Source of the DNA: Candidatus Eiseniibacteriota bacterium | GTDB taxonomy: Bacteria; Eisenbacteria; RBG-16-71-46; CAIMUX01; WJJG01 | DNA length: 64,000 nt | Assembly (NCBI GenBank): GCA_030628905.1 | Contig: DAOVQB010000002.1 | Coordinates: 839-64,838 of the forward strand | Reading direction: 5' to 3' | Part shown: positions 6,100 through 60,618 of the stretch, one piece after another | Numbering within the stretch: the stretch's first letter is position 1 | Layout of the letters: each line of letters opens with the position of its first letter | Notes under the pieces: model-generated | Told to the model about the DNA's origin: nothing | The model's database searches: none | The model's input: only the letters and a program-made list of their open reading frames with translations | Translations under genes and position numbers: made by a program

Positions 6100-7838
6100 T
6101 GCAACCCAAGCTGCGCGGCTTTTTCGCTGACCGGCATCCCCTTCTGATCCAATCCTCGTACGCGGTAGTATCTGGCCCGCGTGCGCAGGAATTCCTTGCG
6201 ATCGAGAGGCGCGATCCGCATGTCATTCCCGCTGCTTCCCTCATCCTCAAAGAACCGGGGCGGCAGATCGTCATCGGCATCCGTGAAGCCGTTGAGTGCA
6301 TTCATGATGCGTTCATTATAATAAATGCGTTCACCCGCGCGCATGAGCTCCTGCGTCGTTGTCTCCACGCCCGTGACGGCTGTGAAGGCCTTCGCATATT
6401 CCTCAAGCGAGGCACCAAAGAAAACGAACTTGCAGGCCGTGAGGGAGTCCACGACTGCATTACAATCCTCGGCGATCTTGATGATCCGAGCCTTCCCGGC
6501 AAAGGAGAAACGATCTGTCGCAACGGGCTTGCGCAAGATCTCATGGCTGATCGGGTAAGCCCGCAGGTGACAGCCGCCGCGCGTGGAAGTGGCATAGCCC
6601 AGTGCCATGCCATAGGCCCCACGTGGATCATAGGCAGGAAGCTCCTGCCGCTTGACAGAGATGGAAACCCCGGGCTCCCCCTTGGCCGCAGCATAGCGGA
6701 AGGACCCCTGCCCCAGTTCTCGTCCTATTCCGTGCCCGTGTCCGATTGCGTCGAGAAGCGAAAGGATGCGCTCACCCGAGAGTCGCTCCCCCTCCATCTC
6801 CGCATAGCAGGCAAGTGTGGCGGCAGCGGATATGGTGTCCATGCCCAGGTTGTTGCATATGGAGTTGGCCTTCGTCACAACGTCGATATCCTCATTCAGC
6901 AGAAGTGCGCTGAAGTGGGACATGGTCTCGAACTCGGGGATAAGCGTTCCATCTCGCGCTACCTTCTTGCAGAGAATGTGACAGCCCCTGCAGCCGGAGC
7001 GCTTTGGCATGTAGCGACGCTTGTAAGCAGCCGCATTCATCGAGGGGGCGGGTGCAAATACGGTCTGCCGGAAGTTAGCAGTAGGCATCATGCGGCGATT
7101 GTTCATGAGATCGTATAGGGCACCTGTGCCGAATTGCGCGATGCCAAGCTCACCTAGGAGAACCGGGCTGGCAGCTATAAGCCGAAAGATGTCTTCACGT
7201 GCCTGCCGCAATCCATCCGGATCATGGACCGGGACGCGGCCACTTCCCTTGATGGTAAGATACTTGAGGTTCTTGGCCGAGAAGAGCAGCCCCAGGCCAT
7301 TGCGGCCGGCGCAATGAGCCCCGTCCACTACTATATTGGCAAACAGCACACCGCTTTCAGCCGCCGGGCCTGCTGTGGCCACTGCCCCTTTGTCTTTGAG
7401 CCGGATGTGGAGCTCCCCTGTCCCCATGCCGGAGAGGGCGCTGGCCTCACGGATCAGTACCGATCCAGGCGTGATCTCGATTCCACAGGGGCGCTGGCTG
7501 CTTCCACTAATGACGATCCCGTCAAATCCGGCCTGCTTGAGTTCAATCCCGAGGCTGCCCCCCACGGAAGCATCGCCGATGGTACCCGTGAGCGGCGAGC
7601 GGGACATGATGCACATGCGCCCCGAGGTTGGCGCCGATGTGCCCACCAGCGGACCAGTCATGAAGATCAGCGGCATCCCAGGGGCATCCCAGGAACGCGT
7701 AGCATGGGGATAGAGGTAGTGCCCAGCAAGACCCTTGCCGCCGATCCAGGCTTGATAGGTCGCCGCGGCGGGATGCTCCACGCTGTGCGTGCCGTCCGTG
7801 AGATCCACATGCAGAATTGATCCAAGCCAGCCGTTCAT
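6087..7838 (-). CDS. aor: Tungsten-type aldehyde:ferredoxin oxidoreductase (AOR family)
   Basis: 583 aa. The N-terminus MNGWLGSILHVDLTDG is AOR-like. An AOR N-terminal domain is followed by Fe-S / pterin-binding domains. Confidence 0.9.
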   Translation of the reverse strand: MNGWLGSILHVDLTDGTHSVEHPAAATYQAWIGGKGLAGHYLYPHATRSWDAPGMPLIFMTGPLVGTSAPTSGRMCIMSRSPLTGTIGDASVGGSLGIELKQAGFDGIVISGSSQRPCGIEITPGSVLIREASALSGMGTGELHIRLKDKGAVATAGPAAESGVLFANIVVDGAHCAGRNGLGLLFSAKNLKYLTIKGSGRVPVHDPDGLRQAREDIFRLIAASPVLLGELGIAQFGTGALYDLMNNRRMMPTANFRQTVFAPAPSMNAAAYKRRYMPKRSGCRGCHILCKKVARDGTLIPEFETMSHFSALLLNEDIDVVTKANSICNNLGMDTISAAATLACYAEMEGERLSGERILSLLDAIGHGHGIGRELGQGSFRYAAAKGEPGVSISVKRQELPAYDPRGAYGMALGYATSTRGGCHLRAYPISHEILRKPVATDRFSFAGKARIIKIAEDCNAVVDSLTACKFVFFGASLEEYAKAFTAVTGVETTTQELMRAGERIYYNERIMNALNGFTDADDDLPPRFFEDEGSSGNDMRIAPLDRKEFLRTRARYYRVRGLDQKGMPVSEKAAQLGLQWTA

Positions 7839-47320: not shown

Positions 47321-48676
47321 TCACTCGCGCAGGATGACATTCATCTCCTCCAGTGTGATCCCCAGTTCGGTGGCAGTCTGTGCGCGGTCGTTACCATAAT
47401 ACTGCAACATCCGGGCGATGTGCTCGCGCTGGACATCCTCCAGTTTGCGAGGCCGAAAGCCATCTTCGGGACCACGGTCCAGTGAAGCAATCTTACTGCG
47501 GATGTACGGCGGAAGTGAGTCTATCGTGATGATACTGCCCTCCTCGTTGACCACCGAGCCCTCAATAATGTTTCGCAGTTCTTGGATATTGTCTGGGAAG
47601 TCGTACTTGCGTAGGAAATCGAAGAATTCCCCGGAGAAACCAGTGATCTCCTTACCGATTTTCTTGAGGGCCTTCTTGAGAAAGAGATCCGCCAATAGAG
47701 GAAGGTCTTCCATGCGCTCGCGAAAGGGTGGAATTCTGACGGAGTTCACCATCAGATGATAGAGGAGATCGTCATGGAATCTGCCCTTATACGCCGGGTT
47801 CGTCAAGTCGCACGAAGATGCAACAATAAATCGCGCTTCGCTCTTGCGAATTTGAGTGGAGTTCTCCCTGTAGTACTCTCTGGTCTGGAGCACGCGCTTC
47901 AACCTCACTTGCATGGGTACGCTCAGGTGCTCTATCTCACCGAGGAAGAGTGTCCCGTCAATAACCTCCTCGAGAAAGCCAGGACGTTCCTCCCGGTCAC
48001 CGCTCCAGACTCGGCCCTGGCCGAAGAGGGCCGATGAGAACCGGTCCGGGTCCTGTCCGGAGGCGTCGACCGCGACGAATGGCTTCTCCCGCCTCGGACT
48101 TGCGCGATGAATGGCGCGCGCAAGCATTTCCTTGCCGGTCCCTCGCTCCCCCCATATGAGAATATCCAGATCACTCGATGCCATTTTCTCAATCTGGTGC
48201 AGGAAACGGATCATCTCAGAATTCTGCGTCGGGAACAGCTCAAAGGCCTCAGCGAACGTGAGATCCTCACGTTTGAGCTCGATGGGCAGTTGACTAATCG
48301 AATGCCGCAGTTCCTGGTGCTCGAGAGCCGCACCGATAACTTCCAGGAGATGCTCTTCATCCACCGGCTTGGTCAAGTAGTCAAATGCACCAAGCTTCAA
48401 GGACTTGACGGCCAGATCCACGTCGCTCACACCAGTCAGAATGATCACCGGTGTCTTGATACCTCTCTCGTGCATCATCACGAGGATATCCATGCCGCTG
48501 ACATTCGGCATGTCCATGTCCAGCAGGATAAGGTTGAACTCCTGCCTAGAGAGCAGGTCCGAGATCTCTCTCGAATCGTTGACCACCTTTGTCTCAAACT
48601 GCCCGGTCTGCATGAGGAAGACCATCAGGTAATTGGTCACCGCAATGTCGTCATCAACGATAAGGATCGTTGTCAT
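47321..48676 (-). CDS. NtrC-family response regulator (REC + AAA+ + HTH) with a degenerate GAFTGA motif
   Basis: ILLDMDMP REC. IWGERGTGKEMLARAIH Walker A. At the GAFTGA position it reads ALFGQGRVWSGDR. Confidence 0.85.
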   Translation of the reverse strand: MTTILIVDDDIAVTNYLMVFLMQTGQFETKVVNDSREISDLLSRQEFNLILLDMDMPNVSGMDILVMMHERGIKTPVIILTGVSDVDLAVKSLKLGAFDYLTKPVDEEHLLEVIGAALEHQELRHSISQLPIELKREDLTFAEAFELFPTQNSEMIRFLHQIEKMASSDLDILIWGERGTGKEMLARAIHRASPRREKPFVAVDASGQDPDRFSSALFGQGRVWSGDREERPGFLEEVIDGTLFLGEIEHLSVPMQVRLKRVLQTREYYRENSTQIRKSEARFIVASSCDLTNPAYKGRFHDDLLYHLMVNSVRIPPFRERMEDLPLLADLFLKKALKKIGKEITGFSGEFFDFLRKYDFPDNIQELRNIIEGSVVNEEGSIITIDSLPPYIRSKIASLDRGPEDGFRPRKLEDVQREHIARMLQYYGNDRAQTATELGITLEEMNVILRE

Positions 48677-48764
48677 GGTCGCTCTCCATCCTGATCGAAT
48701 CCGTCCTCAAGACCGCAATACACCCGAACTCCAATCAGTGCAAATCGAATGCACTGGCTTTGGC

Positions 48765-50762
48765 CTACTGCTTATCATTACCCGGCGCCACCGCTGTTTC
48801 ACTGGTTGACTTGACGGGAATCCTGATCACGAATGTGGTTCCAACCCCGAGTTCACTCTTGACCGAAATGCTTCCACCATGCTCTTCGATGATTCGGTAG
48901 GCAATCGGTAGACCCAGTCCCGTTCCTCCAGATGCTCGTTTAGTCGTGAAGAATGGATCGAAGATCTGCTTCTGTGTCTTCTCGTTCATCCCCTTGCCGT
49001 TGTCTTCCACTTCAATTACAATAGTGTCCTCTTCCATCCGGGTCCTGACAGTGATCAGCCCCTTTCTGTCATCGGGCATGGCCTGACTCGCATTCACTGT
49101 CAAATTTACCAACACCTGCTCTATCTTGTGCGAGTTCCCGGTAAAGGTTAGAACATCAGGATGCAGTTCCAGTTTGATCTCCGCATGCTTGTGTACTTCG
49201 TTGTGCACCAAACGTGTGCAGGCTTCAATTGCCGTGTTCACATCAACTTTGTCTATGAGTAGGCCTTCATCGCGGCGCGCGAAGCGCTTGAGGCCTTCCA
49301 CGATTCCCTTGATCCGCTCTGAGCCGTGCGCCATATCATTGACCAGAACCATGACATGCTCCCGGAAGAACTTGTACGGAAGGCGAGCGATTATCAGGTC
49401 TGGATTGCGCTCAAACTCAGCATCAACAAGGGGCAGCATGTCCTCCAAGGCCTGTTTGATGATCTTGACATTTCCTCTGATAAACTGGTTTGGGTTGTTG
49501 ATTTCGTGTCCAATACCGCTAACCAGCTGTCCGAGTGAGGCGAGCTGATCGGCCTGCTGGAGTTGCTGCTCATAGGTCCTCTCCAGCGTAACATCGCGAT
49601 AGAACTCAATGATGCCCTCTACCTCGTGGTTGGGATCGAATATCGGTAGGGCGTGAACGTCGAGATACCGGTCTCCATCCTTGACGGTGAGCGTGATCGG
49701 CGCTTTGTCATGCACGATCCTGGACAATCGACAATCCTTGCACGGCTTGTCCCGGTGGAAGAAGGATTCATAGCACTTGGCTCCTGCCAGCATCTCCGCG
49801 CGATTCGTCATCACCAGTCTGCGATCCCGATCTATCAGCGCCACATCGCCAGGGAAGGCAGTGAAGATAGTCTCAAGCCGCGTCTTGGATTCCTGCCAAC
49901 CGCGGTTCAGGCGATCCAGGTATAGATTGGCCATGTCCAGTTTTTGCCGCTGCTCTTCCATTTCCCTGGTGCGGGTCTCGATCTCCTTCTCGAGATCAGC
50001 GAAGCGCCGGCGGTAGTCCGCCTCTTCCTCCTCCTTGAGGGCTAGGTGCTGCGAGAGTTCCTTACGCTCAATAGCTAGACTGAGCATGCGGCCAATCTCA
50101 CTCAGCATCTTCTGCTCTTCGGGCAAGAGTTGGACGTCACTATCGATATATCCGACGCGGATTTCGCCAGAGATCTCCTGATTCTCCACGAGCTTGGTGC
50201 TTAGGTAGTTCTCGCCTGTGAGTTCCTGGCCATACTCCTGCCCTTGGTAGACAGAGTAAACCACCACCTGCTCGGGGTACTGCATCCCACGCCGCAGGAA
50301 GCCTGGCAGCTGAGTGAAGAACTCCCTAACGGAGCGCGATATTGCGATCCATTCCGCGACCGAATAGAGACAGGCCAACTCCTTGACGCGCTCGTCCTTG
50401 TCCGTTGCCGCGAAGCGGCTCAGGCCGTCTACCTGGGTGCCGAAGAAGAGAAAGACCTCGCCCTTACTGGTATCTGTATATCCGATTCTAAGGGGAATCG
50501 AACAGGATTTGGCATCCTTGGGCGTGAAGATAACGGTGCCACGAATATCTTCGCGGGCTTGGATCATCCCGGCACGAAAAGTCTGCAGTGAAGACTGAGC
50601 CAGGACTGTTGTCAGGGTTTCGCCGGCAAGGGCCAGCTCCTGGGGCCCGCATCCGCGACACAAAAGGCGGCTGGCGTGGAGGATCTTCTCATTACTGTCA
50701 GCGACCAGTAGGAAATCGAAATTGCCCTCGATGAATGTATACAGGTCTTCCAGTTTGATCAT
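48765..50762 (-). CDS. PAS-domain sensor histidine kinase
   Basis: [10 protein letters not shown]-box. [14 protein letters not shown]2 box. Coiled-coil / PAS regions upstream. Confidence 0.85.
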
Positions 50763-50892
50763 GGCCTATTCCTTCCGGAAGCTGTTGGAACCACCACGTG
50801 GTGCTCCGCTATTCTCGATAGCGCGTCAGATTGGAGCGTAGTCGCCGTCACTCCAGCGCGCTGCTGAGTAGTTCCGAATAGTGCGCAGCCTT

Positions 50893-53800
50893 TCAGTGAA
50901 CCCTGAATCGCTCAGTGCCCACCGCGCGGATCTCCCGCTTGTAGCGACCTCCGTGTGTGAGTGCAGGGGGGATCGGCCTAGGTCTGGCCCGTACGTTGGG
51001 CGTGACGAGGTTGTCTTTTCCAGGCCACGCCCGCTGCTCTCCGGTGTTCCAATAGAAGGCGGCAAGTTCGCCCAGATGTTCTCGCACCCGGGAAGTGAGT
51101 TCCGTGGTGAGGCTCTCTGCAGAAGCCGAGGGCAACCTAACCCCAAACTGCTCGGCCAACCCCGCGAGCAGCTTCCATCCCGGAACACCCGATGGTGGTG
51201 GGATTGCTCGTGAGTACTCAATCAGGTGCCCCTCGAAGTTGCAGCGCGTCCCCTCCGTTTCCAGGTAGGTTGTACCGGGAAGCGTCACGTCGGCAAACCG
51301 GGTCGTTTCCGTGGCACACCAGTCCACTGCCGCAAGGAACTCAACATTGTGGAAGTAGGCCCCCGTCCGATTGTGCTCCATCGGGTCCTCCCCGATGATA
51401 ATCGCTCCTCGGATCCTCCCATCGGCGAGCATGGCACGCAGCTCCTCGTGGGAAGAGGCGCCCGCAAACCCTATAGACGGCCGGCGTCCCGGCAGGAACC
51501 CTGGGTCGGCGCCCGTCACCTCCAATCCCGCCACATTGGCTGTTAACCTGGGCAGCAGCAAGTCGGCGTGCACGCCCGCTGTCCGCAGGAGCAGAAGGAA
51601 GTTGGCCAACGTCTCCATATCCCCTGACGCCTGGTCCTGCGGCCTATCTGGACTGTGAACAAAGACAACCCTCTTGGCATCCCCAAAAAGGGCCGCCGCT
51701 CTGTGAATGCTCTCCTCAGAGACGCCCGTCAGATCGGAGACAGTGCCAAGATCCCTCTCCAAGCTGGCAAGGAATTCATCGCCGCCCGGCATGCTCTGGG
51801 CCTTGTCAGGCGACAGCGTGCCATCCTCCAGAAGCACCTGCATGACGCCATTCCAGAGAACTGAGGCCCTGCCACGCATGGGATCCATCGACACGGCCGC
51901 TAGATGCAGATCGCTTGTATTGAGGATCGAGTTGGCGACGATCAGCTGCGCGCCTTTCTTTGCCGCCTGGATGATCTCAACGGAAAGGATCAAGTGGTCT
52001 GCTTCAGTGCTCGTGTTGTTGCAGACGATCAGATCGGCATCCGCAAGCACCGAGCGGTCAGCCGTCGAGGCCGTGAAACCAAAGGATTGATCCAGGATGC
52101 CCGCATCCTTCCCCACCTCCAAGGCCGCCAAGGAGCCAATATTGTTTGTGCCCAGGCCCTCCCGTGCAATCCGGCTGGCTATGTAGAGTTCTTCATTGCT
52201 CAACGCTGGCGAGGCAAAGACGGCGACTGATTCCCGGCCATGCTTCGCCACAACCTCCTTCATGCCGTCCACGATTCTTTGGTATGCCTCGGGAAGAGCA
52301 ACCTCCTCCGACGCGCTACCCGAACGCACCAACGGGGCCGTCAGTCTCTTCCGTTTAATAAAGCGTTCATAACCGAAACGGCCATAACGACAGAGGTACT
52401 CGCCAGGTACACCCGAGGGACCGATGAAGTAGCGGTTGTCTCCAAAGCGCTTGACGGTTATTGCGCATCCGATGGAGCAGGAAGCGCAATGGGTTGCCAC
52501 ATTGTCCGTCGCCAACGCAGCCCGCCCCGGAAACGGATACTTGATGGTCAATGCACCCGTGGGACAGGCATCAACGCAATTCCCGCAGCTGATACAACTG
52601 GTCTGGACCAGCGGGTCATTCATGGCCGGGCGCATCTCGGTCCGGAAGCCCCGGCCCACCAATCCCAGTGCGGCAATGGGTAGGACACGCGCGCATGTGC
52701 GGATGCAGCGAGAACACAGAACACACTTGTTTGGATCGTAGACGATGTATGGGTGACGGCTGTCAACCTTGTGCTTCCTGACATAGCCGGAGAACTCGTC
52801 CATGTCGACACCGTATTCCTGGGCGTATAACCTGAGGGCACAGTCGTCATAGCGGACACAACCGCAGGAAAGGCATCGATCCACCTCGTGCGCCATGTCT
52901 TCTGGCTCGAAGCCGGTCGCAACCTCGTCGAAGCTACCCTGGCGCTCTTCCACATCGATCATGTGGACTGCGTGGCGCGGGCTCTCGGAGACCTCACCCA
53001 ACTCCGCCTGGCCAGGTTTGGCCCAGAACTCCTTCGTCACCACAAATGGTTCGGACTCCAGCGCCTCACCGCTGAGGTAGCTGTGAATGGCCTGGGCCGC
53101 CCGTCGGCCATCGCGAATGGCATCAATCACTACCGTGGGGCCATCATCGGCAGCATCGCCTCCAGCGAAGATGCCTTCGATGTTTGTTTTCATCGTCTGG
53201 GTATCGACCTCGATCGTTTCCCAGCGGGAAATGCCGAGCTCTTTTCCCTGCACTGATCGAAGGCCGTCGAGCACCGGGGCCTGACCGATGGCCGAGACGG
53301 CAAGCTGGCAAGGAAGCTCGAACTCGGATCCCTCCAGCGGAATGGGACGACGGCGCCCGGACGCATCGGGTTCACCCAGCTTCATCCGGATACACTTGAG
53401 CGCCTTGAGCTTCCCTTTCTCGGAACTGATCCCAACCGGAGCAGCCAGCTCCATGATCTCGATGCCCTCTTCGAGGCAGTCCTCTATTTCCATCCGGTCG
53501 GCCGGCATTTCGGCCTTGGTCCTCCGATACAGGATGATGACCTTGTCGGCGCCGCACCGCCATGCTGTGCGCGCCGCATCCATGGCCGTGTTCCCGCCGC
53601 CCACGACAACAATTGTACCTGTCACTGGGTCGGGATGATCGGCCTTCTTCAGCAGGAACTCAGCCCCGGTAACAACGCCTTCGGTATCGAACTCGCCCTC
53701 CACACGCATCGGCTTTCCTGCCCAGCCGCCAACGGCGAGGAAGAGAGCCGCGTGGCGCTTCTTGAGTTCGTCGAGCGAGATGTCCTGGCCCACACGAACT

Positions 53801-54585
53801 CCATAGTTGATCTCGGCGCCAGTCCGGCAGATGTATTCCGCCTCCCTATCGAGCACATCGTCGGGCAGCCGGTAGGTAGGAATCCCATAGCGCAACATTC
53901 CGCCGCTGCGGCTCATCGCCTCATAGAGCACCGGCTTGTAGCCCTTCTTGCCCAAGAACCAAGCAGCCGTCAATCCCGCCGGGCCGGCGCCAACGATGCC
54001 GATCGTCTGACCGCGGGAGGGCTCACACTCGGGCTGTCCATCATAGATCCCTGGCGCATCAGTCACATAGCGCTTGACCGCGTTGATGCTGACGGCCTGG
54101 TCCACGTCCACGCGCCGGCAGACCACCTCGCACTTACGCACGCACACGCGGCCGCACACAGCAGGTAGCGGATTGGCTTCGCGGATGAGATCAACGGCCT
54201 TGCGAGTCTGCCCCATGCCGGCGAGAGCAATGTACCCTTGCGCATCCACTCCCGCTGGGCAACCGATCTTGCACGGAGAGATGCAGTCGGCGTAGTGGTT
54301 AGAGAGCAGCAGTTCCAGAGCCGTTTTTCGAGAGGCCATAATGCGCTCATTGCGCGTCTCTACCTCCATGCCGGGGGCGACCCTCGTAGCACAGGAGGGC
54401 ACAAGATTCGGCCGGCCCTTGACCTCCACCACGCAGAGGAAACAGGAACCGTATGGCTCCAATTCATCTGAGTGGCAGAGCGTCGGAATATCATCGAGTT
54501 TCTGTTCCCGCACCACATCGAGAATGGTCTGGCCAGGCCTGGCAGCAATCTCCTGCCCGTTGATAGTAATCTTGATGGTTCCCAT
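50893..54585 (-). CDS. Fused NuoG/FdhA-like + GltD/NfnB-like oxidoreductase. Domain order: 2Fe-2S, then an inserted GltD-like FAD/NAD(P)H module, then Fe-S domains, then a molybdopterin-oxidoreductase-fold domain that appears to lack the Cys/Sec ligand.
   Basis: aa 1-100 2Fe-2S (CHSDELEPYGSCFLC). aa ~100-520 GltD-like (CGRVCVRKCEVVC, IGIVGAGPAGLTAAWFL, VVVGGGNTAMDAART). aa 541-680 His/Cys Fe-S motifs. aa 690-1230 molybdopterin-fold domain (CASCSIGC ... SNEELYIASRIAREGLGTNNIGSLAAL). Confidence 0.85.
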   Translation of the reverse strand: MGTIKITINGQEIAARPGQTILDVVREQKLDDIPTLCHSDELEPYGSCFLCVVEVKGRPNLVPSCATRVAPGMEVETRNERIMASRKTALELLLSNHYADCISPCKIGCPAGVDAQGYIALAGMGQTRKAVDLIREANPLPAVCGRVCVRKCEVVCRRVDVDQAVSINAVKRYVTDAPGIYDGQPECEPSRGQTIGIVGAGPAGLTAAWFLGKKGYKPVLYEAMSRSGGMLRYGIPTYRLPDDVLDREAEYICRTGAEINYGVRVGQDISLDELKKRHAALFLAVGGWAGKPMRVEGEFDTEGVVTGAEFLLKKADHPDPVTGTIVVVGGGNTAMDAARTAWRCGADKVIILYRRTKAEMPADRMEIEDCLEEGIEIMELAAPVGISSEKGKLKALKCIRMKLGEPDASGRRRPIPLEGSEFELPCQLAVSAIGQAPVLDGLRSVQGKELGISRWETIEVDTQTMKTNIEGIFAGGDAADDGPTVVIDAIRDGRRAAQAIHSYLSGEALESEPFVVTKEFWAKPGQAELGEVSESPRHAVHMIDVEERQGSFDEVATGFEPEDMAHEVDRCLSCGCVRYDDCALRLYAQEYGVDMDEFSGYVRKHKVDSRHPYIVYDPNKCVLCSRCIRTCARVLPIAALGLVGRGFRTEMRPAMNDPLVQTSCISCGNCVDACPTGALTIKYPFPGRAALATDNVATHCASCSIGCAITVKRFGDNRYFIGPSGVPGEYLCRYGRFGYERFIKRKRLTAPLVRSGSASEEVALPEAYQRIVDGMKEVVAKHGRESVAVFASPALSNEELYIASRIAREGLGTNNIGSLAALEVGKDAGILDQSFGFTASTADRSVLADADLIVCNNTSTEADHLILSVEIIQAAKKGAQLIVANSILNTSDLHLAAVSMDPMRGRASVLWNGVMQVLLEDGTLSPDKAQSMPGGDEFLASLERDLGTVSDLTGVSEESIHRAAALFGDAKRVVFVHSPDRPQDQASGDMETLANFLLLLRTAGVHADLLLPRLTANVAGLEVTGADPGFLPGRRPSIGFAGASSHEELRAMLADGRIRGAIIIGEDPMEHNRTGAYFHNVEFLAAVDWCATETTRFADVTLPGTTYLETEGTRCNFEGHLIEYSRAIPPPSGVPGWKLLAGLAEQFGVRLPSASAESLTTELTSRVREHLGELAAFYWNTGEQRAWPGKDNLVTPNVRARPRPIPPALTHGGRYKREIRAVGTERFRVH

Positions 54586-54596
54586 GCCCTCCTACC

Positions 54597-56375
54597 TTAG
54601 CTCTTGTACACAGCGCCGAAGTTGCAGCTTGTGATGCACCTGCTGCACTTAACACATTTGTCAGTGTTGATAACGTGGACTTTCTTGGGTTCCCCAGAGA
54701 TTGCATCGACCGGGCAGTTCTTCGCACAGCTTGTACAGCCTACGCATTTCTCAGGATCAATGAAGAAATCCACCAGGGCTTCGCAGCTCTTTGCGGGACA
54801 CTTGCGCTCATCGATATGGGCATCATACTCGTGGCGAAAATAACGAAGTGTAGTCAGAACAGGATTCGGCGCCGTCTGGCCGAGGCCACAGAGGCTGGCC
54901 TCCTTGATCTGAACAGAGAGTTTCTCAAGCTTCGCGATGTCGCCGGGACGTCCCTCGCCTTTGGTTATGCGCTCCAGAATCTCGAGCATCCTGAGTGTTC
55001 CGATGCGGCAGAAGGTACACTTACCACAGGACTCGCTCTGCGTGAACTCCAAGAAGAAACGGGCGATCTCTACCATGCATGTGGAGTCGTCCACGACAAC
55101 CATGCCACCTGATCCCATGATCGCGCCGGTCTGGGGAATGCTCTCGAAGTCAACGGGGGTATCACCTAGTTCACTTGGAATGCAGCCTCCGGACGGCCCA
55201 CCCATCTGGACAGCCTTGAACTTCCGCCCCCCCTTGATGCCGCCGCCGATCTTGAACACCAGGTCGTTGATCGTGGTGCCCATGGGAACTTCGGCAAGCC
55301 CGCCATGTGCAACCTTGCCTGCCAGAGCGAAGACCTTGGTTCCAGGGCTCTGCTTGGTTCCAAACTTGGTGTATTCCGCCGCACCATTAACAATTATCCA
55401 TGGTACATTGGCGTAAGTCTCCACGTTGTTGTTATTCGTAGGTTTCCGCCAGAGCCCCTTCTCCGCCGGAAATGGTGGCCGGATCCGCGGCATCCCACGC
55501 TCGCCCTCGATGGAAGCAAAGAGAGCGGTCTCTTCACCGCACACGAACGCGCCGGCGCCCTGCTTGATTTTCACATCGAAGTTGAAACCGGAACCAAGGA
55601 TATTCTTGCCCAGGTAGCCTTTCTCTCTGGCGGCGGCAATCGCGATGTTGAGCCGCTTGATAGCCAGCGGATACTCGGCCCGGCAATATATGTAGCCAAA
55701 ACCCGCGTTGATGGCGCGCGCACAGATGATCATCCCCTCTAGGACCGAATGGGGATCCCCCTCCAGCACGGAACGGTCCATGAACGCGCCGGGATCGCCC
55801 TCGTCGGCATTACAGACGACATACTTCGTCTCCCCGCTGTATCCGGCAGCAAAGGACCACTTGAGCCCGGTCGGAAAGCCCGCACCGCCACGCCCGCGCA
55901 GGCCGGAGGCCTTCATCTCCTCAATGATCGTCTCAGGCGTCATCTCAAGGAGGGCTTTGCGTAGACCATCGTAGCCGCCTGCGTCCACATAGTCCGCCAG
56001 CGACTCGGGATCGATGATGCCACAGTTCCTCAGCACAATCCGCTGTTGCGGAACCATGAACTCCGTCTCAGACCCCTCCGGAGGAGCATCTAGTGTCTCC
56101 TTGTACACCACATATTCATCAATGACCTCGCTCCCACGGACGCTGCGCTCGAAGATCTCTACAGCCCGCTCGACACTGACGTTTCCATAGATCACCCGGC
56201 TCCCGTTCTGACGAATCTCCACCAAGGGTTCTCGATAGCACATCCCGATGCAACCCGTGATGCATAGTTCGCAGGAATCCGGTTCCGAGGAAACCAGCTC
56301 CTGGAGTTTTTCATGCACACCTTGAGCACCAGCCGATAGACCGCAGGTGCCCATTCCGACGAGCACTTTCTTCAT
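54597..56375 (-). CDS. NuoF/HndC/HydB-type FMN and NAD(P)H-binding subunit with an N-terminal thioredoxin-like 2Fe-2S domain and C-terminal 2x[4Fe-4S] ferredoxin domains
   Basis: MKKVLVGMGTCGLSAG...CELCITGCIGMC. GGAGFPTGLKW (FMN). C-terminal CVGCTSCAKNCP...CVKCSRCITSC. Confidence 0.9.
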   Translation of the reverse strand: MKKVLVGMGTCGLSAGAQGVHEKLQELVSSEPDSCELCITGCIGMCYREPLVEIRQNGSRVIYGNVSVERAVEIFERSVRGSEVIDEYVVYKETLDAPPEGSETEFMVPQQRIVLRNCGIIDPESLADYVDAGGYDGLRKALLEMTPETIIEEMKASGLRGRGGAGFPTGLKWSFAAGYSGETKYVVCNADEGDPGAFMDRSVLEGDPHSVLEGMIICARAINAGFGYIYCRAEYPLAIKRLNIAIAAAREKGYLGKNILGSGFNFDVKIKQGAGAFVCGEETALFASIEGERGMPRIRPPFPAEKGLWRKPTNNNNVETYANVPWIIVNGAAEYTKFGTKQSPGTKVFALAGKVAHGGLAEVPMGTTINDLVFKIGGGIKGGRKFKAVQMGGPSGGCIPSELGDTPVDFESIPQTGAIMGSGGMVVVDDSTCMVEIARFFLEFTQSESCGKCTFCRIGTLRMLEILERITKGEGRPGDIAKLEKLSVQIKEASLCGLGQTAPNPVLTTLRYFRHEYDAHIDERKCPAKSCEALVDFFIDPEKCVGCTSCAKNCPVDAISGEPKKVHVINTDKCVKCSRCITSCNFGAVYKS

Positions 56376-56387
56376 CTGTGCACTCCA

Positions 56388-56434
56388 GCTTCCTTACAGG
56401 GCCTCCGGCTTCCTTACAGGGGCTCCGGCTTCCG
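56388..56434. repeat. ~20-bp tandem repeat (2.3 copies) directly upstream of the NuoF-like start, duplicating an SD-like GGAG element
   Basis: gcttccttacagggcctccg / gcttccttacaggggctccg / gcttcc... Confidence 0.8.
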
Positions 56435-56569
56435 ATAGTGGGAATAAAGCCAACTCAGACTAGTGCCGACCATGAATCACAGTACTCAGGGCTCGCACAA
56501 GAATAACTTCCCATTTTCGCCGGACCCGAACGCCGGGGACTTCGTTGCGGCTCCTCGGAGTAGTCCCGG

Positions 56570-57082
56570 CTACGCCTCACAGCCGGTAGCTGCCGGTGTT
56601 CCTGCCGCCTTCTTTCCCTCTTGACGGCGGTATCCGCGTAGCAGTTTTCTGACGGCGGCAGGCGTAAGGCTTCCATGGGTTTCATCATTGACCATTATCA
56701 CCGGGGCCAGTGAGCAGCAGCCCAGACAGGCTACAGTGACGAGGGTAAACAACCCATCTTCCGTGGTATCGCCCACCTCAATGCCTAGCTCGTCTTGAAC
56801 CGTATCGATGAGCATCCTCGCCCCAGACACGTGGCAGGCTGTCCCGTCGCAGACTCTGACCAAGTATTTGCCCGCCGGTTGAAGCCTGAACTGACTGTAG
56901 AAGGTGATGACGCCGTAGATGGTCGACTCAGGGATGCTGGTTACCTCAGAGATGTATCTAATGGCCCGGCGCGGTATGTAGCCGAAGTGATCCTGCGCTG
57001 ACTGAAGCAGTGGGATCAACTCCCCAGGCGCGCCATCGTATCGCCAGAGCCTATAACCGAAGTGATCCGATTGCAAAGCCAT
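56570..57082 (-). CDS. NuoE/HndA/HydC-type 2Fe-2S subunit
   Basis: VCDGTACHVSGA...ACLGCCSLAPV motifs. Confidence 0.9.
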   Translation of the reverse strand: MALQSDHFGYRLWRYDGAPGELIPLLQSAQDHFGYIPRRAIRYISEVTSIPESTIYGVITFYSQFRLQPAGKYLVRVCDGTACHVSGARMLIDTVQDELGIEVGDTTEDGLFTLVTVACLGCCSLAPVIMVNDETHGSLTPAAVRKLLRGYRRQEGKKAAGTPAATGCEA

Positions 57083-57132
57083 GATCAGTGTCCTGCCCTA
57101 CACTGCATGAATGTCAGGGGGATACCGCAACG

Positions 57133-58146
57133 TTAGTCATCAAGCATCTTGATGACCTTCGCCTCACGCACGCGGAGAACCCCATCGATCTCGCTGATCT
57201 TCTCGATAATCCGCGGGGTCCGGCCAACGGCACCGTGTCCCGTGATCATCCCGACGAGCTTCGTGCCACCCTCAATTACATCACAGAAGATGACCTCCTC
57301 GATGAAGAAAACCGTGGTGAAAATCTGCTGAATCGCATCCTTGTCGATATCAACCATGATATAGCTCGTTGTGCCAGGTTGCTTCGCCACAGTCTGCTGA
57401 GCCGATGCCTTAACAGCCTTCTGATAGATCGCGACGAACTCGTCGACGTCTCGGTCTAGCTTTGGCCTCTCGACAGCCGACTCGGATGCAACCTCAAGGC
57501 CATCGATTGCTTCCACTTTCTTGAAAAGGGCGTTGATCCCCTCTCGCGTCTCGGCCTGTGCAAGGAGGATAATGTCGACATCACCACGCACTGCTTGGCA
57601 TGAAGCAATGCCATCCATCTGGCTGAGTTCGTTGAATACATCCATGCTTTTTGTAGGGTCAGTGATCCTCACTGTCAGGTAGGCGCTGACGGACTCGCGC
57701 ATGCGTCCCTCATCTTTCGCGGCAGCGCTAGGCTTGAGAGTTGAGGGCCCGGGGGAGAGTTTCTCGAGCGCCTTGACTAGTTCGGGAATCTCAAACGGCT
57801 TGTCGAGGTAGCCGGTGTTCTTTTCAGCAAGAGCGGTGTGCATGAGCCTGTCGTCCCCGAAGCCAGTGATCACCAAAACAGGTAGATCGGGAAACTGGCT
57901 CTTGATGACCTTGAGGATCTTCAGACCATCGATATCGGGCATGAAGATATCAGTGACAAGGTAGTCGTAACCAACCCCCTTTTCACGGGCCTGATTGAGT
58001 TCATGGATCGCCGAGATGCCATCAGGGCAAGCCACAACGGTGTAGTCCTCTTGTGTCAGGCCAATTGTCAGGTTCCGCCTGATTTCCGGCTCGTCATCAA
58101 TAATAAGCAAGCGCCCTTTCACTGGAATCCTCCATGAAAATGACAA
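57133..58146 (-). CDS. Response regulator with REC plus two C-terminal Lrp/AsnC-type RAM (ACT-like) ligand-binding domains. No DNA-binding domain.
   Basis: LLIIDDEPEIRRNL...VTDIFMPDIDG...LPVLVITGF REC. The C-terminal halves resemble RAM domains (..AVRGDVDIILLAQAE..IDGL.., ..IEGGTKLVGMITGHG..IDGVLRV..). Confidence 0.65.
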   Translation of the reverse strand: MSFSWRIPVKGRLLIIDDEPEIRRNLTIGLTQEDYTVVACPDGISAIHELNQAREKGVGYDYLVTDIFMPDIDGLKILKVIKSQFPDLPVLVITGFGDDRLMHTALAEKNTGYLDKPFEIPELVKALEKLSPGPSTLKPSAAAKDEGRMRESVSAYLTVRITDPTKSMDVFNELSQMDGIASCQAVRGDVDIILLAQAETREGINALFKKVEAIDGLEVASESAVERPKLDRDVDEFVAIYQKAVKASAQQTVAKQPGTTSYIMVDIDKDAIQQIFTTVFFIEEVIFCDVIEGGTKLVGMITGHGAVGRTPRIIEKISEIDGVLRVREAKVIKMLDD

Positions 58147-58698
58147 TACAAACGGCCCGCGCGACCATCAGTTATCGTCGATCCGGCTCATCCACCGCAA
58201 GCCGGTGCGCCCCCGCATGGCGGGGCGGCGCATCTGCCTATGATCGAACAGCACCAGATCTTACCCGGTGCCCGCCCGAAGGCGCAAGCGCCGAACGCCA
58301 GTCGAGCCTTCGGACAGGGACACGGCCTGGGAGCTGCCAGCCTGGGAGGTGACCATGGAGCCGGGAGTCAGTAGCCCCGCAACGGGGCCCCGTCACGGAA
58401 GCCCTCACCGAGCACGAGGATGCGGTTCCCCGGCAGAGCCTTGACAAACTAGCCCCTGCCGACCGCTAGGCTCGCGGTTGGACAATTGAGCCTCTGCTCA
58501 GCAATTGCGCAATTGACCCGCAAAGTCTCTACTGGCACGCCTTGACTTCGCAACATACTCGCTGTTGAATCGTCTTGTAGGGTTGGCCTGTATTTTTCAC
58601 CAGCCGCAGTAGATGGCTGGTGAAGAGTGCAGGCTAGGTGAGAGAGGAGATTCCTCGTACGAAACCGCCGACCCCAAGAGAAGGAGAGGGGGACTCCA

Positions 58699-60618
58699 AT
58701 GCTCAGTAAAACCACGCTATGGTGCTTCCTCGTTGGGCTGCTTGTCACTCTGACCGGTTGCGCTAGTGAGACCTCACGGATGGAGACCAGACTCATCCCA
58801 CTGGATGATTTCTTCAAGAACCCACAGAAGATCCGTCTCCGGCTTTCCCCCAACGGCGAGTACATTGCCTTCCTGATGCCCTGGCAGACGCGGTTCAACA
58901 TCCACGTGCAGGAAATCGGATCAAACGAAGTGGCGCGCATCACCGAATCAACCGAGCGCGACATCATCCAATACAACTGGGCCAACAACAACCGCATCGT
59001 GTACGCCCAAGACACAGCCGGCGACGAGAATTACCGCGCCTACGCCGTCGATATCGATGGATCCAACCCGATCGACCTGACCCCCTTCGAGGGCGTCAAG
59101 GTGGGACTCGTCGATGAACTGAGGGACAATGACGATGAGATGCTGATCTCGATGAACAAACGTGACGCTCACGTCTTTGATGTCTACCGCATCAATGTCA
59201 ATACGGCCGAGATGGAGATGATCGCCGAAAACCCAGGCAACATCTCCACCTGGATAACCGATCATGACGGCCGGCTCCGGATCGCCATGACCGCTGACGG
59301 GGTCAATGAGAGCCTGCTGTACCGGAAAACCGAATCCGATCCATTCGAAACGATCATCACCACGAACTTCAAAGACACGCTCCACCCGCTCTGCTTCACA
59401 TTCGACAACAAGTATATCTATGTCGCTTCCAACATCGACCGCGATAAGTCAGCCATCTACAAGTACGATATCGAGAAAGGAGAGCCCCTGGAGCTCATCT
59501 ACGACCACCCGGAAGTGGATGTCAGTCAGCTGCTCAAGTCCAGGAAACGGAAGGTCATTACCGGCGTGACATACACAACGGACAAGCGCCACTACCATTT
59601 CTTTGATCAAGAGCGCAAGGCACTGCAGGAAACCCTCGAACAAAGACTCCCTGGCTACGAAGTAGCCGTCGCAAGCATGAGTAAGGATGAGAGCAAAGTA
59701 CTGGTTGTGACCTATAGCGATAAGTCCATGGGAACTTACTATTACTTCAACAGGCCCACCGGGGAACTCGAGAAGCTGGTCGATATCAGTCCCTGGCTCA
59801 AGGAAGATGAAATGGCCGACATGCAGCCGATTCAGTATGTCTCACGGGATGGCTTGACGATCCACGGCTATCTGACCATTCCGCGGGGCGCCGAGCCCAA
59901 GAACCTGCCGGTCATTATCTTCCCGCACGGCGGCCCCTGGGCGCGAGATAGGTGGGGCTTCTCCCCGGAAGTCCAGTTCCTGGCGAATCGGGGCTATGCC
60001 ATCCTGCAGATGAACTTCCGCGGCTCGCTCGGCTACGGCAAGGCTTTCTGGCAGGCCTCATTCAAGGAGTGGGGCCGAACCATGCAGGACGACATCACGG
60101 ATGGCGTGAATTGGTTGATCGAGAAGGAGATCGCCGATCCAAAGCGGATCGGGATTTATGGTGGCTCCTACGGCGGTTTTGCAGTCCTTGCGGGCTTGGC
60201 CTTCACGCCCGATCTATACGCGGTCGGCGTGGATTACATCGGTGTCTCGAATCTCTTCACCTGGATGGCGGCCATCCCACCCTATTGGGAGATAGGCCGT
60301 CAGATGTTCTATGAGATGATTGGGGATCCGGAGAAGGACAAGGAACTGCTCGAGGCGGCCTCCCCGATATTCCATGTGGACCGGATTCAAGCCCCGCTGT
60401 TTGTGGCCCAGGGAGCGAATGATGTCCGTGTGAAGAAGGCGGAATCGGACCAGATCGTCGAAGCACTCCGCGAGCGAGGGGTTGACGTGACCTACATGGT
60501 CAAGGAGAACGAAGGTCACGGGTTCATGAACGAGGAGAACCGATTCGACTTCTACCGTGAGATGGAGGGGTTCCTGGGCAAGCACCTCGGTGGCCGAGTG
60601 GAGAAGCCGGGACAGTAG
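58699..60618 (+). CDS. S9-family serine peptidase (prolyl oligopeptidase / dipeptidyl peptidase type), lipoprotein
   Basis: Lipobox LTGC. Beta-propeller N-domain. GGSYGGF nucleophile elbow. C-terminal ...EGHGF. Confidence 0.9.
   Translation: MLSKTTLWCFLVGLLVTLTGCASETSRMETRLIPLDDFFKNPQKIRLRLSPNGEYIAFLMPWQTRFNIHVQEIGSNEVARITESTERDIIQYNWANNNRIVYAQDTAGDENYRAYAVDIDGSNPIDLTPFEGVKVGLVDELRDNDDEMLISMNKRDAHVFDVYRINVNTAEMEMIAENPGNISTWITDHDGRLRIAMTADGVNESLLYRKTESDPFETIITTNFKDTLHPLCFTFDNKYIYVASNIDRDKSAIYKYDIEKGEPLELIYDHPEVDVSQLLKSRKRKVITGVTYTTDKRHYHFFDQERKALQETLEQRLPGYEVAVASMSKDESKVLVVTYSDKSMGTYYYFNRPTGELEKLVDISPWLKEDEMADMQPIQYVSRDGLTIHGYLTIPRGAEPKNLPVIIFPHGGPWARDRWGFSPEVQFLANRGYAILQMNFRGSLGYGKAFWQASFKEWGRTMQDDITDGVNWLIEKEIADPKRIGIYGGSYGGFAVLAGLAFTPDLYAVGVDYIGVSNLFTWMAAIPPYWEIGRQMFYEMIGDPEKDKELLEAASPIFHVDRIQAPLFVAQGANDVRVKKAESDQIVEALRERGVDVTYMVKENEGHGFMNEENRFDFYREMEGFLGKHLGGRVEKPGQ

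Follow-up and report, generated by a model that had tools for sequence, protein, structure and literature searches.

Three co-oriented genes, carried by a 64,000-nucleotide stretch of a Candidatus Eisenbacteria MAG (hereafter the window), very probably encode an electron-bifurcating transhydrogenase based on flavins and Fe-S clusters, of the NfnABC/Stn type within the Bfu family, as judged from homology and sequence signatures. The preliminary description had proposed NuoE-like, NuoF-like and 1230-aa subunits here, and our coordinates and the shared orientation agree with it for all three ORFs (170, 592 and 1230 aa):

56570..57082, minus strand, nfnC/stnA, NuoE-like subunit, 170 aa
54597..56375, minus strand, nfnB/stnB, NuoF-like bifurcating subunit, 592 aa
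50893..54585, minus strand, nfnA/stnC, NADP(H)-binding subunit, 1230 aa

The solved homologues also support the function proposed there, a Stn-type bifurcating transhydrogenase with a dead formate-dehydrogenase-like scaffold. However, the combination is not undescribed as had been claimed, since it is exactly the StnC/NfnA architecture, purified in 2020 and solved three times by cryo-EM (8OH5, 9BOV/9BP5, 9N5U), and StnC does not have the hydrogenase-like scaffold ascribed to it there, being a NuoG-like protein into which a GltD-like domain is fused (PMC7483475).

For each of the window subunits, the closest solved relatives were chains of 8oh5, 9bov and 9n5u over the full length, and E-values of the three proteins against the solved StnABC/NfnABC chains ranged from 1e-48 to 1e-251. 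Sequence identity to the Caldicellulosiruptor subunits was 37% for NfnA (over 1175 aa, BLASTP E 0 to P0241), 61% for NfnB and 52% for NfnC, and the large subunit showed only 37-42% identity to the characterised enzymes, which counts against the assignment. The gene order C-B-A is common to the window, Caldicellulosiruptor and Thermosediminibacter. The window enzyme falls in a distinct clade whose members come only from MAGs, belonging to many phyla, and the window proteins carry every signature that has been defined for Stn/NfnABC, whether for Fe-S, the Zn site, FAD, NADPH or the FMN side. We infer its activity and physiological direction from this homology and from the retained cofactor-binding signatures.

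The NuoE-like NfnC consists of a Pfam 2Fe-2S_thioredx domain (E 5.9e-51) with 9n5u_C (NfnC, 3e-52), 9bov_C (5e-48) and 8oh5_A (1.4e-47) as top PDB matches, and the C1 [2Fe-2S] ligands expected of a BfuC subunit are present (C78, C83, C119 and C123, invariant among 67 relatives). In NfnB, a thioredoxin-like N-terminal domain is followed by the FMN/NAD(H) site (Pfam Complex1_51K, E 6e-46, and NADH_4Fe-4S, E 4e-34) and by a C-terminal 2x[4Fe-4S] domain, covered at aa 538-589 by Fer4_21 and related Pfam models. Its best PDB matches are 8oh5_B (4.9e-251), 9bov_B (8e-248) and 9n5u_B (9e-242), with the hydrogenase HydB chains ranking below. Following published ligand definitions for the B sites (PMC9304861, PMC11829005), every element that characterises BfuB was located. 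The B1 [4Fe-4S] ligands (C450/453/456/496) and the eight cysteines of B3/B4 (C544-C584) are invariant in 71 relatives. B2, defined as Cys, (Cys/Thr) and His-x5-Cys-x4-Cys spanning the B1 motif (PMC9304861) and occupied by Zn in the solved enzymes (PMC11829005), corresponds to a Zn-type site at C433, T471, H520, C526 and C531, spaced identically to C438/C476/H525/C531/C536 in NiFe-HydB; H520 was found in 71/71 relatives and T471 in 64/71, and the three B2 cysteines are invariant as well. The N-terminal domain can be aligned, starting at residue 2-3, with its counterparts in 8oh5_B, 9bov_B and 9n5u_B, and provides B5 (C11, C42, C46 and E49), its three cysteines, the only invariant ones of the domain, being conserved in all 71 relatives and E49 lying in a motif common to the solved NfnB/StnB chains. 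The N-terminal thioredoxin-like and C-terminal ferredoxin-type domains noted in the preliminary description are both present. As for the N-terminal [2Fe-2S] cluster noted there, the three-Cys pattern is the one that in Caldicellulosiruptor NfnB marks a site occupied by Zn instead of [2Fe-2S], and the sequence fits either metal centre.

The large subunit aligned end to end with 9bov_A (E 3.9e-231, query 3-1151) and 8oh5_C (E 1.2e-213), and can be divided as follows:

54286..54585, minus strand, NfnA aa 1-100, N-terminal [2Fe-2S] domain and start of the split NuoG His/Cys motif
52891..54285, minus strand, NfnA aa 101-565, inserted GltD/NfnL-like module with two [4Fe-4S] sites
52516..52890, minus strand, NfnA aa 566-690, CxxCxCx5C motif and 2x[4Fe-4S] ferredoxin-like domain
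50893..52515, minus strand, NfnA aa 691-1230, FdhF-like domain

Pfam recovered Fer2_4 (aa 3-79), Fer4_20 (101-177), Pyr_redox_2 (196-493), Fer4_Nqo3 (612-680) and Molybdopterin (747-1144), so that the FAD- and NADP(H)-binding module follows the [2Fe-2S] N-terminus as in other Nfn-Bfu enzymes. Of the NuoG His/Cys-cluster domain (PF10588), only model positions 1-17 were matched, at aa 86-102; this cut indicates that the GltD module is truly inserted into the His/Cys-cluster domain, in agreement with the insertion first described. The module carries the FAD motif GxGxxG (199-204), the NADPH motif GGGNTAMD (329-336) and YRR (353-355), all invariant in 72 relatives, and its PDB matches include the NfnB/NfnL chains 4ylf_B (8e-86) and 5jca_L (5e-79). 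Candidate cluster ligands include C37, C48, C51 and C65 for A1 [2Fe-2S], the split motif H97xxxC101xxxC105xxxC109P, the CxxCxCx5C cysteines C571/574/576/582, the ferredoxin-like cysteines C621-631 and C664-674, and the CxxCxxxC...C site C700/703/707/732 of the FdhF-like domain. The HxxxCxxxCxxxCP motif was also described for Stn/Nso, while CxxCxC...C was attributed to the GltD insertion (PMC7483475). K171 is the counterpart of Lys170, which together with three cysteines ligates cluster A7 in Caldicellulosiruptor saccharolyticus NfnA (PMC11829005). The resulting set of one [2Fe-2S] site and 24 [4Fe-4S] ligands for six clusters, H97 and K171 included, is invariant in the 72 relatives and matches in number the seven clusters of the solved C. 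saccharolyticus NfnA (A1 [2Fe-2S], A2-A7 [4Fe-4S]), each ligand being putatively assigned to its cluster. The window clade has an additional invariant cysteine, C144, beside the A7 ligands, which the solved enzymes lack and which is a further point against the assignment, and PF04879, detected in Firmicutes NfnA proteins, was undetected in the clade although its four cysteines are kept.

When compared with characterised systems, the window enzyme resembles StnABC of Sporomusa ovata (Sporomusa-type Nfn, 8OH5/8OH9) in its three subunits, gene order, comparable large-subunit length (1172 aa in StnC, 1230 aa here), HxxxCxxxCxxxCP and CxxCxC...C motifs and inactive FdhF-like domain, but the window protein is ~55 aa longer, chiefly in the Fdh-like domain, has C144, is flanked by the three signalling genes described below, and belongs to a Candidatus Eisenbacteria MAG, not to an acetogenic Firmicute. 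C. saccharolyticus NfnABC (9BOV/9BP5) provides a full-length match to the large subunit and the same ligand counts, with the A7 Lys, B1/B3/B4 and C1, a 3Cys-1His B2, a 3Cys-1Glu-type B5 and an incomplete pterin site; its locus differs in that receiver, kinase and sigma-54 genes are not adjacent. The archaeal Nfn-Bfu enzymes (Thermococcus sibiricus NfnABC, 9N5U; T. litoralis Nso) share the family and the reaction proposed here, although their NfnA is shorter (~960 aa), with cluster A4 and the greater part of the Fdh-like domain missing, the window protein being the long bacterial form. NfnAB/NfnSL catalyses the same overall reaction and its NfnB/NfnL is homologous to the GltD-like module, but it bifurcates at the NfnB FAD with a PyrK-like small subunit (FAD and [2Fe-2S]) and has no NuoE/NuoF-like module, while the partners encoded in the window are NuoE- and NuoF-like.

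The sole fresh point in our data is a set of signalling genes that accompanies the operon throughout this lineage of uncultured bacteria, which we did not find in the Stn/NfnABC literature consulted (the word "regulator" is absent from the Stn paper, PMC7483475):

57133..58122, minus strand, receiver and two ferredoxin-like (RAM/NapD-like) domains (receiver-RAM), 329 aa from a GTG at 58122
48765..50762, minus strand, soluble PAS histidine kinase (Pfam), 665 aa, downstream of nfnA
47321..48676, minus strand, NtrC-type sigma-54 activator (REC, AAA+ and HTH_8; Pfam)

Receiver-RAM is a companion specific to this clade. Its longest ORF extends to 58146, and an identical 329-aa protein is present in the databases (P0121); this fourth ORF of the stretch first described (57133..58146) encodes a response regulator and no enzyme subunit. 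Pfam detected Response_reg (aa 14-127) and AsnC_trans_reg (aa 167-218), the phospho-acceptor residues are invariant, and a low-confidence AF2 model (pLDDT 62) shows REC followed by two beta-alpha-beta-beta-alpha-beta domains. The PAS kinase is kept downstream of nfnA in 51/80 loci; C330, C341 and C344 in its PAS_4 region are invariant and C131 near-invariant among 47 relatives, the phospho-acceptor is H419, and its sequence contains no hydrophobic segment. The sigma-54 activator was found in 45/80 loci and is tightly coupled to the kinase gene (median gap of -1 bp), and independent gene calls gave an identical six-gene order in L081-L083. We infer that these two-component genes regulate the window enzyme. 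It could also be proposed that receiver-RAM is itself an accessory or regulatory subunit which, depending on phosphorylation or on a ligand, controls Nfn-Bfu activity beyond expression, which we consider unlikely. In favour of this, nfnC is immediately preceded by the receiver-RAM gene in 68/68 related loci reaching that far (2 bp away in L081), no DNA-binding domain is recognisable by Pfam or in the AF2 model, and the conservation of receiver-RAM (36-78% identity across the 68 loci, median 70%) is like that of the enzyme subunits (medians 65-77%) and above that of the kinase (59%) and activator (56%). It is also missing, as are the kinase and sigma-54 genes, from the two Firmicutes loci (Caldicellulosiruptor and Thermosediminibacter). 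However, the spacer to nfnC is mostly 50-140 bp, often with a GC-rich hairpin, which fits a cistron that is separate or attenuated better than a coupled subunit, the solved NfnABC/Stn complexes do without a fourth subunit (PMC10482914, PMC11829005), single-domain and non-DNA-binding response regulators mostly work inside signalling pathways, and the AF2 model is weak in confidence.

In regards to the reaction itself, an NAD(P)H oxidoreductase that has this fold but does not bifurcate appears very unlikely. Such an enzyme could be a NADPH:ferredoxin/Fe(III) reductase like SfrAB, an NAD(P)H:sulfur/oxygen oxidoreductase like Nso, or just a NADH:NADP+ transhydrogenase. The NfnA architecture does equal SfrB and SfrA fused, the GltD-like SfrB with its Fe-S motifs and the NuoG/Fdh-like SfrA of Geobacter sulfurreducens being its two halves, and residues 1-632 match NCBIfam PRK12814, though with 614 bits under a cutoff of 916. 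But SfrAB consists of two separate proteins without NuoE/NuoF-like partners, which in the window clade are both adjacent and co-conserved, and the window BfuB keeps B2-B5, published for all bifurcating members and absent from non-bifurcating homologues (PMC9304861). Among these sites, almost every BfuB protein keeps the B2 His, whereas the non-bifurcating homologues lack it and also miss the C-terminal B3/B4 domain, the ferredoxin-reducing branch (PMC9304861). The homologous T. litoralis Nso, a sulfur/oxygen reductase in its first description, is itself now regarded as Nfn-Bfu (PMC7483475, PMC9304861).

The FdhF-like domain points to a dead catalytic site, as the preliminary description had proposed from the loss of Cys/Sec. 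The segment GTNNIGSLAAL (NfnA aa 812-822, nt 52120..52152) is followed by the position at which the "ARLCH" Cys-His pair of the HDCR formate dehydrogenase FdhF (7qv7_S) aligns:

52114..52119, minus strand, E823-V824, counterpart of the formate dehydrogenase Cys/Sec-His catalytic pair in the alignment

In the 72 relatives compared, residue 823 is hypervariable (S, G, E, L, C, A, T or V, with Cys in 5) and residue 824 is G, T, S, A, N, R, V, D, C or Y, never His, and nfnA has no in-frame TGA apart from its terminal stop. Moreover, the alignment to 7qv7_S covers only chain residues 7-531 of 743, leaving 532-743 without counterpart, and Pfam found no Molydop_binding (PF01568), the C-terminal pterin-capping domain. 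An ordinary formate dehydrogenase had been expected to show a ligand Cys/Sec and an fdhD/fdhE or Moco gene context, and neither was found in NfnA or among the neighbour genes examined. A NAD(P)+-dependent Mo/W formate dehydrogenase is effectively refuted on these grounds, despite the Pfam Molybdopterin domain, a partial TIGR01591 Fdh-alpha match (scoring 174 bits where the cutoff is 666), the JGI label "formate dehydrogenase major subunit" on many relatives, and the NuoE/NuoF-like partners, NuoG-like N-terminus and molybdopterin-oxidoreductase fold common to FdsABG/FdhF (PDB matches 6tg9_A, 2e-66, and 7qv7_S, 4e-40), since those enzymes have the Cys/Sec-His pair and full pterin-binding domains, no GltD insertion, and NuoF homologues without B2-B5, and since StnC, likewise annotated as formate dehydrogenase and carrying a molybdopterin-oxidoreductase-type [4Fe-4S] site, showed no formate activity (PMC7483475) and cryo-EM of homologues revealed an inactive FdhF-like domain whose pterin site is incomplete and lacks density for a pterin (PMC10482914, PMC11829005).

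Judging from its solved homologues, the bifurcating transhydrogenase of the window would use the FAD in its GltD-like module to oxidise NADPH, and single electrons would pass through the [4Fe-4S] clusters of NfnA and its N-terminal [2Fe-2S] cluster to B1 and the FMN of NfnB. The [B1-FMN-C1] site would be the splitting point, one electron going to NAD+ and the other, by way of the mobile [2Fe-2S] cluster of NfnC and the C-terminal B3/B4, to ferredoxin. The Fdh-like domain would hold no Mo/W-pterin and would serve as a scaffold, involved in tetramerisation in the solved enzymes, with a dead-end Fe-S branch; Stn and C. saccharolyticus NfnABC are reported to be tetramers of heterotrimers assembled via the large subunit (PMC10482914, PMC11829005). 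An NAD+-dependent, tightly coupled NADPH to ferredoxin reaction, and its reverse, was demonstrated biochemically for family members from S. ovata, T. sibiricus and C. saccharolyticus (PMC7483475, PMC9304861, PMC11829005).

The window also encodes an aldehyde:ferredoxin oxidoreductase, which indicates that the organism has a ferredoxin-linked metabolism and thereby favours the bifurcating assignment, and, separately at 37337..39580, a fused NfnAB-type protein, which counts against it. Given that Stn and Nfn were reported to be almost mutually exclusive in acetogens (PMC7483475), the window NfnABC and the fused NfnAB-type enzyme may differ in role or regulation. The window enzyme is an ordinary new member of the already purified and structurally solved Stn/NfnABC family, which balances the cellular NADH, NADPH and ferredoxin pools.

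The three co-oriented open reading frames named in the preliminary description lie exactly where it had placed them, all on the minus strand, and the pattern is real, chance being excluded by E-values of 1e-46 to 1e-250:

56570..57082, minus strand: NuoE-like open reading frame (nfnC), 170 aa
54597..56375, minus strand: NuoF-like open reading frame (nfnB), 592 aa
50893..54585, minus strand: large-subunit open reading frame (nfnA), 1230 aa

Parsing of the 1230-aa protein agreed with the proposed GltD module inside a NuoG/Fdh-like scaffold, the Pfam domains following each other in that order:

aa 3-79: Fer2_4
aa 101-177: Fer4_20
aa 196-493: Pyr_redox_2
aa 612-680: Fer4_Nqo3
aa 747-1144: Molybdopterin

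Pfam found no Molydop_binding domain in NfnA. Since PF10588, the model of the NuoG His/Cys-cluster, matches by its first 17 positions only (NfnA aa 86-102), the GltD module is inserted into the NuoG His/Cys motif. The NuoF-like protein is made of a thioredoxin-like N-terminal domain, an FMN/NADH core and a C-terminal 2x[4Fe-4S] domain. Also, the nfnC-nfnB spacer of the window is unusually long (194 bp, for a median of about 45 bp in the relatives) and holds a 20-nt tandem repeat (56383..56433, 2.5 copies, 93% match), the final copy of which overlaps the nfnB ribosome-binding site.

The identity of the complex was assigned by a sequence search of the PDB with the three window proteins, with these best solved matches:

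NfnA (1230 aa): 9bov_A (3.9e-231, query 3-1151), 8oh5_C (1.2e-213), 9n5u_A 'NfnA' (7e-171)
NuoF-like protein: 8oh5_B (4.9e-251), 9bov_B, 9n5u_B 'NfnB'
NuoE-like protein: 9n5u_C 'NfnC', 9bov_C, 8oh5_A

The solved complexes are StnABC of Sporomusa ovata (8OH5/8OH9, PMC10482914), NfnABC of Caldicellulosiruptor saccharolyticus, hereafter Csac (9BOV/9BP5, PMC11829005), and an archaeal Nfn-Bfu (9N5U, PMC12018979), and for the NuoF-like query every hydrogenase HydB ranked below their three chains. Identity to the Caldicellulosiruptor proteins, for which the reference was a 99%-identical NfnA together with its neighbouring genes, was 37% for A (over 1175 aa), 61% for B and 52% for C. The window locus adds a member to the Stn/NfnABC (Nfn-Bfu) electron-bifurcating transhydrogenases and falls in a clade that consists of MAGs only; it represents a new clade within a known family and not a new family. 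The function first proposed for it stands and the novelty does not: the supposedly undescribed combination appeared in the first Stn paper, where StnC has a GltD-like domain fused with a NuoG-like domain, carries a molybdopterin-oxidoreductase-type [4Fe-4S] site and, despite being annotated as a formate dehydrogenase, gave no formate activity when assayed (PMC7483475). The mechanistic intuition behind the comparison with Stn was sound, the error lying in the view that Stn has a hydrogenase-like scaffold only. Both StnC-type Cys motifs are present in the window NfnA (H97/C101/C105/C109-P and C571/C574/C576/C582). In Csac NfnABC the pterin site is incomplete and pterin density is absent (PMC11829005).

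Two other readings of the large subunit were considered. Identity as a Mo/W formate dehydrogenase fails the tests applied. The motif GTNNIGSLAAL of the molybdopterin-fold domain lies at NfnA aa 812-822 (nt 52120..52152). In a pairwise HMMER alignment with 7qv7_S, the HDCR formate dehydrogenase FdhF, the 'ARLCH' of FdhF, with the metal-ligand Cys and the catalytic His, aligns with 'AALEV' of NfnA, the Cys-His pair falling on E823-V824, and the alignment stops at residue 531 of the 743 of FdhF. The nfnA reading frame contains a sole stop, the terminal TGA, and the early observation of neither a Cys nor an in-frame TGA at the metal-ligand position is thereby confirmed. Among 72 relatives, column 823 is occupied by S, G, E, L, C, A, T or V and column 824 is never His. 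The Cys found at column 823 in five of them (L056, L061, L062, L063 and L071) is probably incidental, because the next residue is A, S or C, never His, and the column is otherwise unconstrained and hypervariable. An assembly chimera is ruled out, as the database search for the same domain order recovered this architecture in thousands of proteins and 122 genomes, and it is also that of the three solved structures.

The conservation of the cofactor sites was evaluated in alignments that joined the window proteins to 67-72 full-length relatives, translated from genome contigs. The Bfu family is defined by an invariant BfuBC core, in which BfuB has the B1 site and the B2-B5 sites, the latter missing from non-bifurcating homologues, and BfuC carries C1 (Schut et al. 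2022). In the alignment of relatives, the B1 ligands of the window NfnB (the BfuB) are C450/453/456/496, and its B2 site is made of C433, T471, H520, C526 and C531, with H520 in 71/71 relatives and a spacing equal to that of C438/C476/H525/C531/C536 in NiFe-HydB; a Thr at the position equivalent to 471 is found in two-thirds of BfuBs (Schut et al. 2022). B3 and B4 comprise eight Cys between residues 544 and 584, and B5 has three invariant Cys (C11, C42 and C46) and a motif, 'TGCIGMCYREP', that is common to the window NfnB, StnB and Csac NfnB. The 'Trx-like 2Fe-2S domain' first assigned to the N-terminus of this subunit describes the fold and not the cofactor, because B5 of the Csac homologue is a 3Cys-1Glu Zn site and not a [2Fe-2S] cluster (PMC11829005). 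In the window NfnC (the BfuC) the C1 ligands are C78/C83/C119/C123. Finally, across 72 relatives of NfnA the four Cys of the [2Fe-2S] cluster, another 24 candidate ligands (H97 and K171 among them) and the FAD and NADPH motifs (GGGNTAMD, YRR) are invariant; K171 is the counterpart of Lys170, a ligand of cluster A7 in Csac, and the ligand count matches the one [2Fe-2S] and six [4Fe-4S] clusters of Csac NfnA (PMC11829005). We also noticed C144 (nt 54154..54156), which is invariant in 72/72 clade members and forms a Cx3Cx3Cx3C pattern beside the A7 ligands, whereas the three solved NfnA/StnC chains have Ile or Leu there.

Every ligand and motif needed by the bifurcation scheme is retained in the window proteins. 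By analogy with the solved complexes, NADPH would reduce the FAD within the GltD-like module, and single electrons would then follow the route published for Csac NfnABC, A7-A6-A3-A2-A1, as far as B1 and FMN (PMC11829005). Bifurcation would take place at the [B1-FMN-C1] flavobicluster, one branch reducing NAD+ at the FMN and the other running from the mobile C1 cluster over B3/B4 to ferredoxin, while the clusters of the Fdh-like domain would form a dead-end branch in a domain that probably also mediates tetramerisation (PMC10482914, PMC11829005). We infer both the bifurcating activity and the in vivo direction of the window enzyme by homology.

An identical NfnA is present in NCBI as 'MAG: FAD-dependent oxidoreductase [Candidatus Eisenbacteria sp.]'. 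The best 120 database clusters for NfnA span 1163-1253 aa (117/120 at 1219-1253 aa), are 64-74% identical and show an unchanged Pfam set. In a collection with one genome per species, relatives are encoded by 122 genomes, and the best 80 of these (58-72% identity) are all MAGs, labelled as Eisenbacteria, Krumholzibacteriota, Fermentibacteria/Aegiribacteria/Sabulitectum, Planctomycetota, Verrucomicrobiota, Spirochaetales, Acidobacteriota, Elusimicrobia and others. Nfn-Bfu had earlier been reported mainly from Firmicutes and Euryarchaeota, with some Synergistetes and Bacteroidetes (Schut et al. 2022), and no paper linking Fermentibacteria, Krumholzibacteriota or Eisenbacteria to bifurcation or Nfn was found among the 20 top-ranked full-text literature results.

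What is new, measured against the cited literature, is a conserved six-gene neighbourhood, found in MAGs of many phyla and located at 47321..58122 (minus strand) in the window. The neighbour proteins were compared by tblastn with 80 related loci, as follows in gene order:

Receiver + RAM-like (receiver-RAM) protein (57133..58122, minus strand, 329 aa, GTG start at 58122): 68 loci, all that also retain nfnC; median identity 70%
nfnC: 68 loci, median identity 77%
nfnB: 74 loci, median identity 76%
nfnA: 80 loci, median identity 65%
PAS histidine kinase (48765..50762, minus strand, soluble): 51 loci, median identity 59%
Sigma-54 NtrC-type activator: 45 loci, median identity 56%

The receiver-RAM protein shows the same degree of conservation as the enzyme subunits. 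Separate gene calling on three contigs from metagenomes confirmed the order of the six genes, and there the module and an Rnf operon run divergently. In contrast, the Caldicellulosiruptor and Thermosediminibacter loci consist of nfnCBA only, without the receiver, kinase and activator genes. Translational coupling links the kinase gene to the activator gene (median gap -1 bp), and the receiver-nfnC spacer is usually 50-140 bp long, frequently with a GC-rich hairpin. Such hairpins, of unrelated sequence, occur in L011, L015, L021, L045, L046, L048, L053, L054, L059, L061 and other loci and might act in attenuation, partial termination or mRNA stabilisation; the 50-bp spacer of the window itself has no strong hairpin. 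An Rfam scan of 50700..58800 gave no real element, a single sub-threshold snoRNA-model match in coding sequence being due to chance. The sigma-54 pattern TGGCAC-N5-TTGCW (GG/GC fixed, at least 9-10 of 11 positions) was sought upstream of the gene for the receiver protein, between that gene and nfnC, in whole loci and in the window, and no promoter was found at a conserved position; recurrent matches near 7977 on the opposite strand fall inside coding sequence. One relative (L081/L082, 1..8235) has the module divergent from an operon of the Rnf type, whose products include a multihaem cytochrome c, a 693-aa RnfB-GltD-like fusion and a NuoG/Fdh-like protein (978 aa) to which a NuoE-like domain is fused.

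In the receiver domain the acidic pair, phospho-acceptor Asp, conserved Thr and conserved Lys are intact, and no DNA-binding domain was recognised in the receiver-RAM protein. AlphaFold2 (overall pLDDT 62) predicted two beta-alpha-beta-beta-alpha-beta units in the C-terminal part, and we limit the fold call to this wording because these domains were modelled at low confidence; Pfam matched the first unit to AsnC/RAM at a borderline level and left the second without a match, and a Foldseek search of the model against the PDB returned receiver-domain matches only. Among 47 relatives of the kinase, C330/C341/C344 in the second PAS region are invariant, C131 is nearly so, and H419 is the phospho-acceptor. 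This Cys set hints at a redox sensor that uses a metal or an Fe-S centre and, in our own reading, may resemble Cys-ligated sensor PAS domains. The most economical interpretation of the gene neighbourhood would be that a dedicated two-component system controls expression. A direct action of the receiver-RAM protein on the enzyme is possible, though unsupported and rather improbable. We would give the same slim chance to a wider scheme in which the clade's Nfn-Bfu is the output of an intracellular redox/metabolite-sensing circuit, with the receiver-RAM protein binding or gating the enzyme on phosphorylation or ligand; the soluble PAS kinase with its invariant Cys cluster, the sigma-54 activator and the receiver-double-RAM protein would, just as doubtfully, be the parts of that circuit.

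Elsewhere in the window, a fused NfnAB (NfnSL)-type protein of 747 aa (37337..39580, plus strand) matches NCBIfam PRK12778 end-to-end at 1084.5 bits (cutoff 1103), so that the genome has the two kinds of bifurcating transhydrogenase less than 15 kb apart; Stn and Nfn were reported to be almost mutually exclusive in acetogens (PMC7483475). A first pass gave a fused NfnAB beside the module in 11 loci, and only that of L065 proved to be full-length, the others being partial GltD-domain matches. An aldehyde:ferredoxin oxidoreductase (6087..7838, minus strand; AFOR_N and AFOR_C, E 1e-103) lies near genes for a class II aldolase-domain protein, a urocanase, a C1-like peptidase and a citrate/sulfate-type transporter, and these genes point to a ferredoxin-linked amino-acid-fermenting lifestyle. 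The oxidoreductase, the urocanase and the peptidases that the window also encodes fit a fermentative anaerobe that uses ferredoxin. An 1850-aa open reading frame (41717..47269, minus strand) lies immediately downstream of the gene for the sigma-54 activator and has UvrA-type ABC ATPase, DNA-binding and interaction domains in duplicate, which makes it about twice as long as a normal UvrA.

As a redox balancer of anaerobes the enzyme is of textbook type, and finding it here adds nothing mechanistic. The names 'formate dehydrogenase major subunit', 'FAD-dependent oxidoreductase' and 'NADPH-Fe(3+) oxidoreductase', one or other of which many relatives bear, are an annotation trap, since these proteins are Nfn-Bfu large subunits. 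The range of Nfn-Bfu is extended to a coherent clade of Eisenbacteria, Krumholzibacteriota, Fermentibacteria, Planctomycetota, Verrucomicrobiota and other uncultured lineages, which bears on the metabolic reconstruction of these MAGs. The cited Stn, NfnABC and Bfu literature makes no statement on the regulation of bifurcating enzymes, on which the six-gene module offers a handle; were the gating scheme true, it would be the first case of direct signal-dependent control over an electron-bifurcating enzyme.
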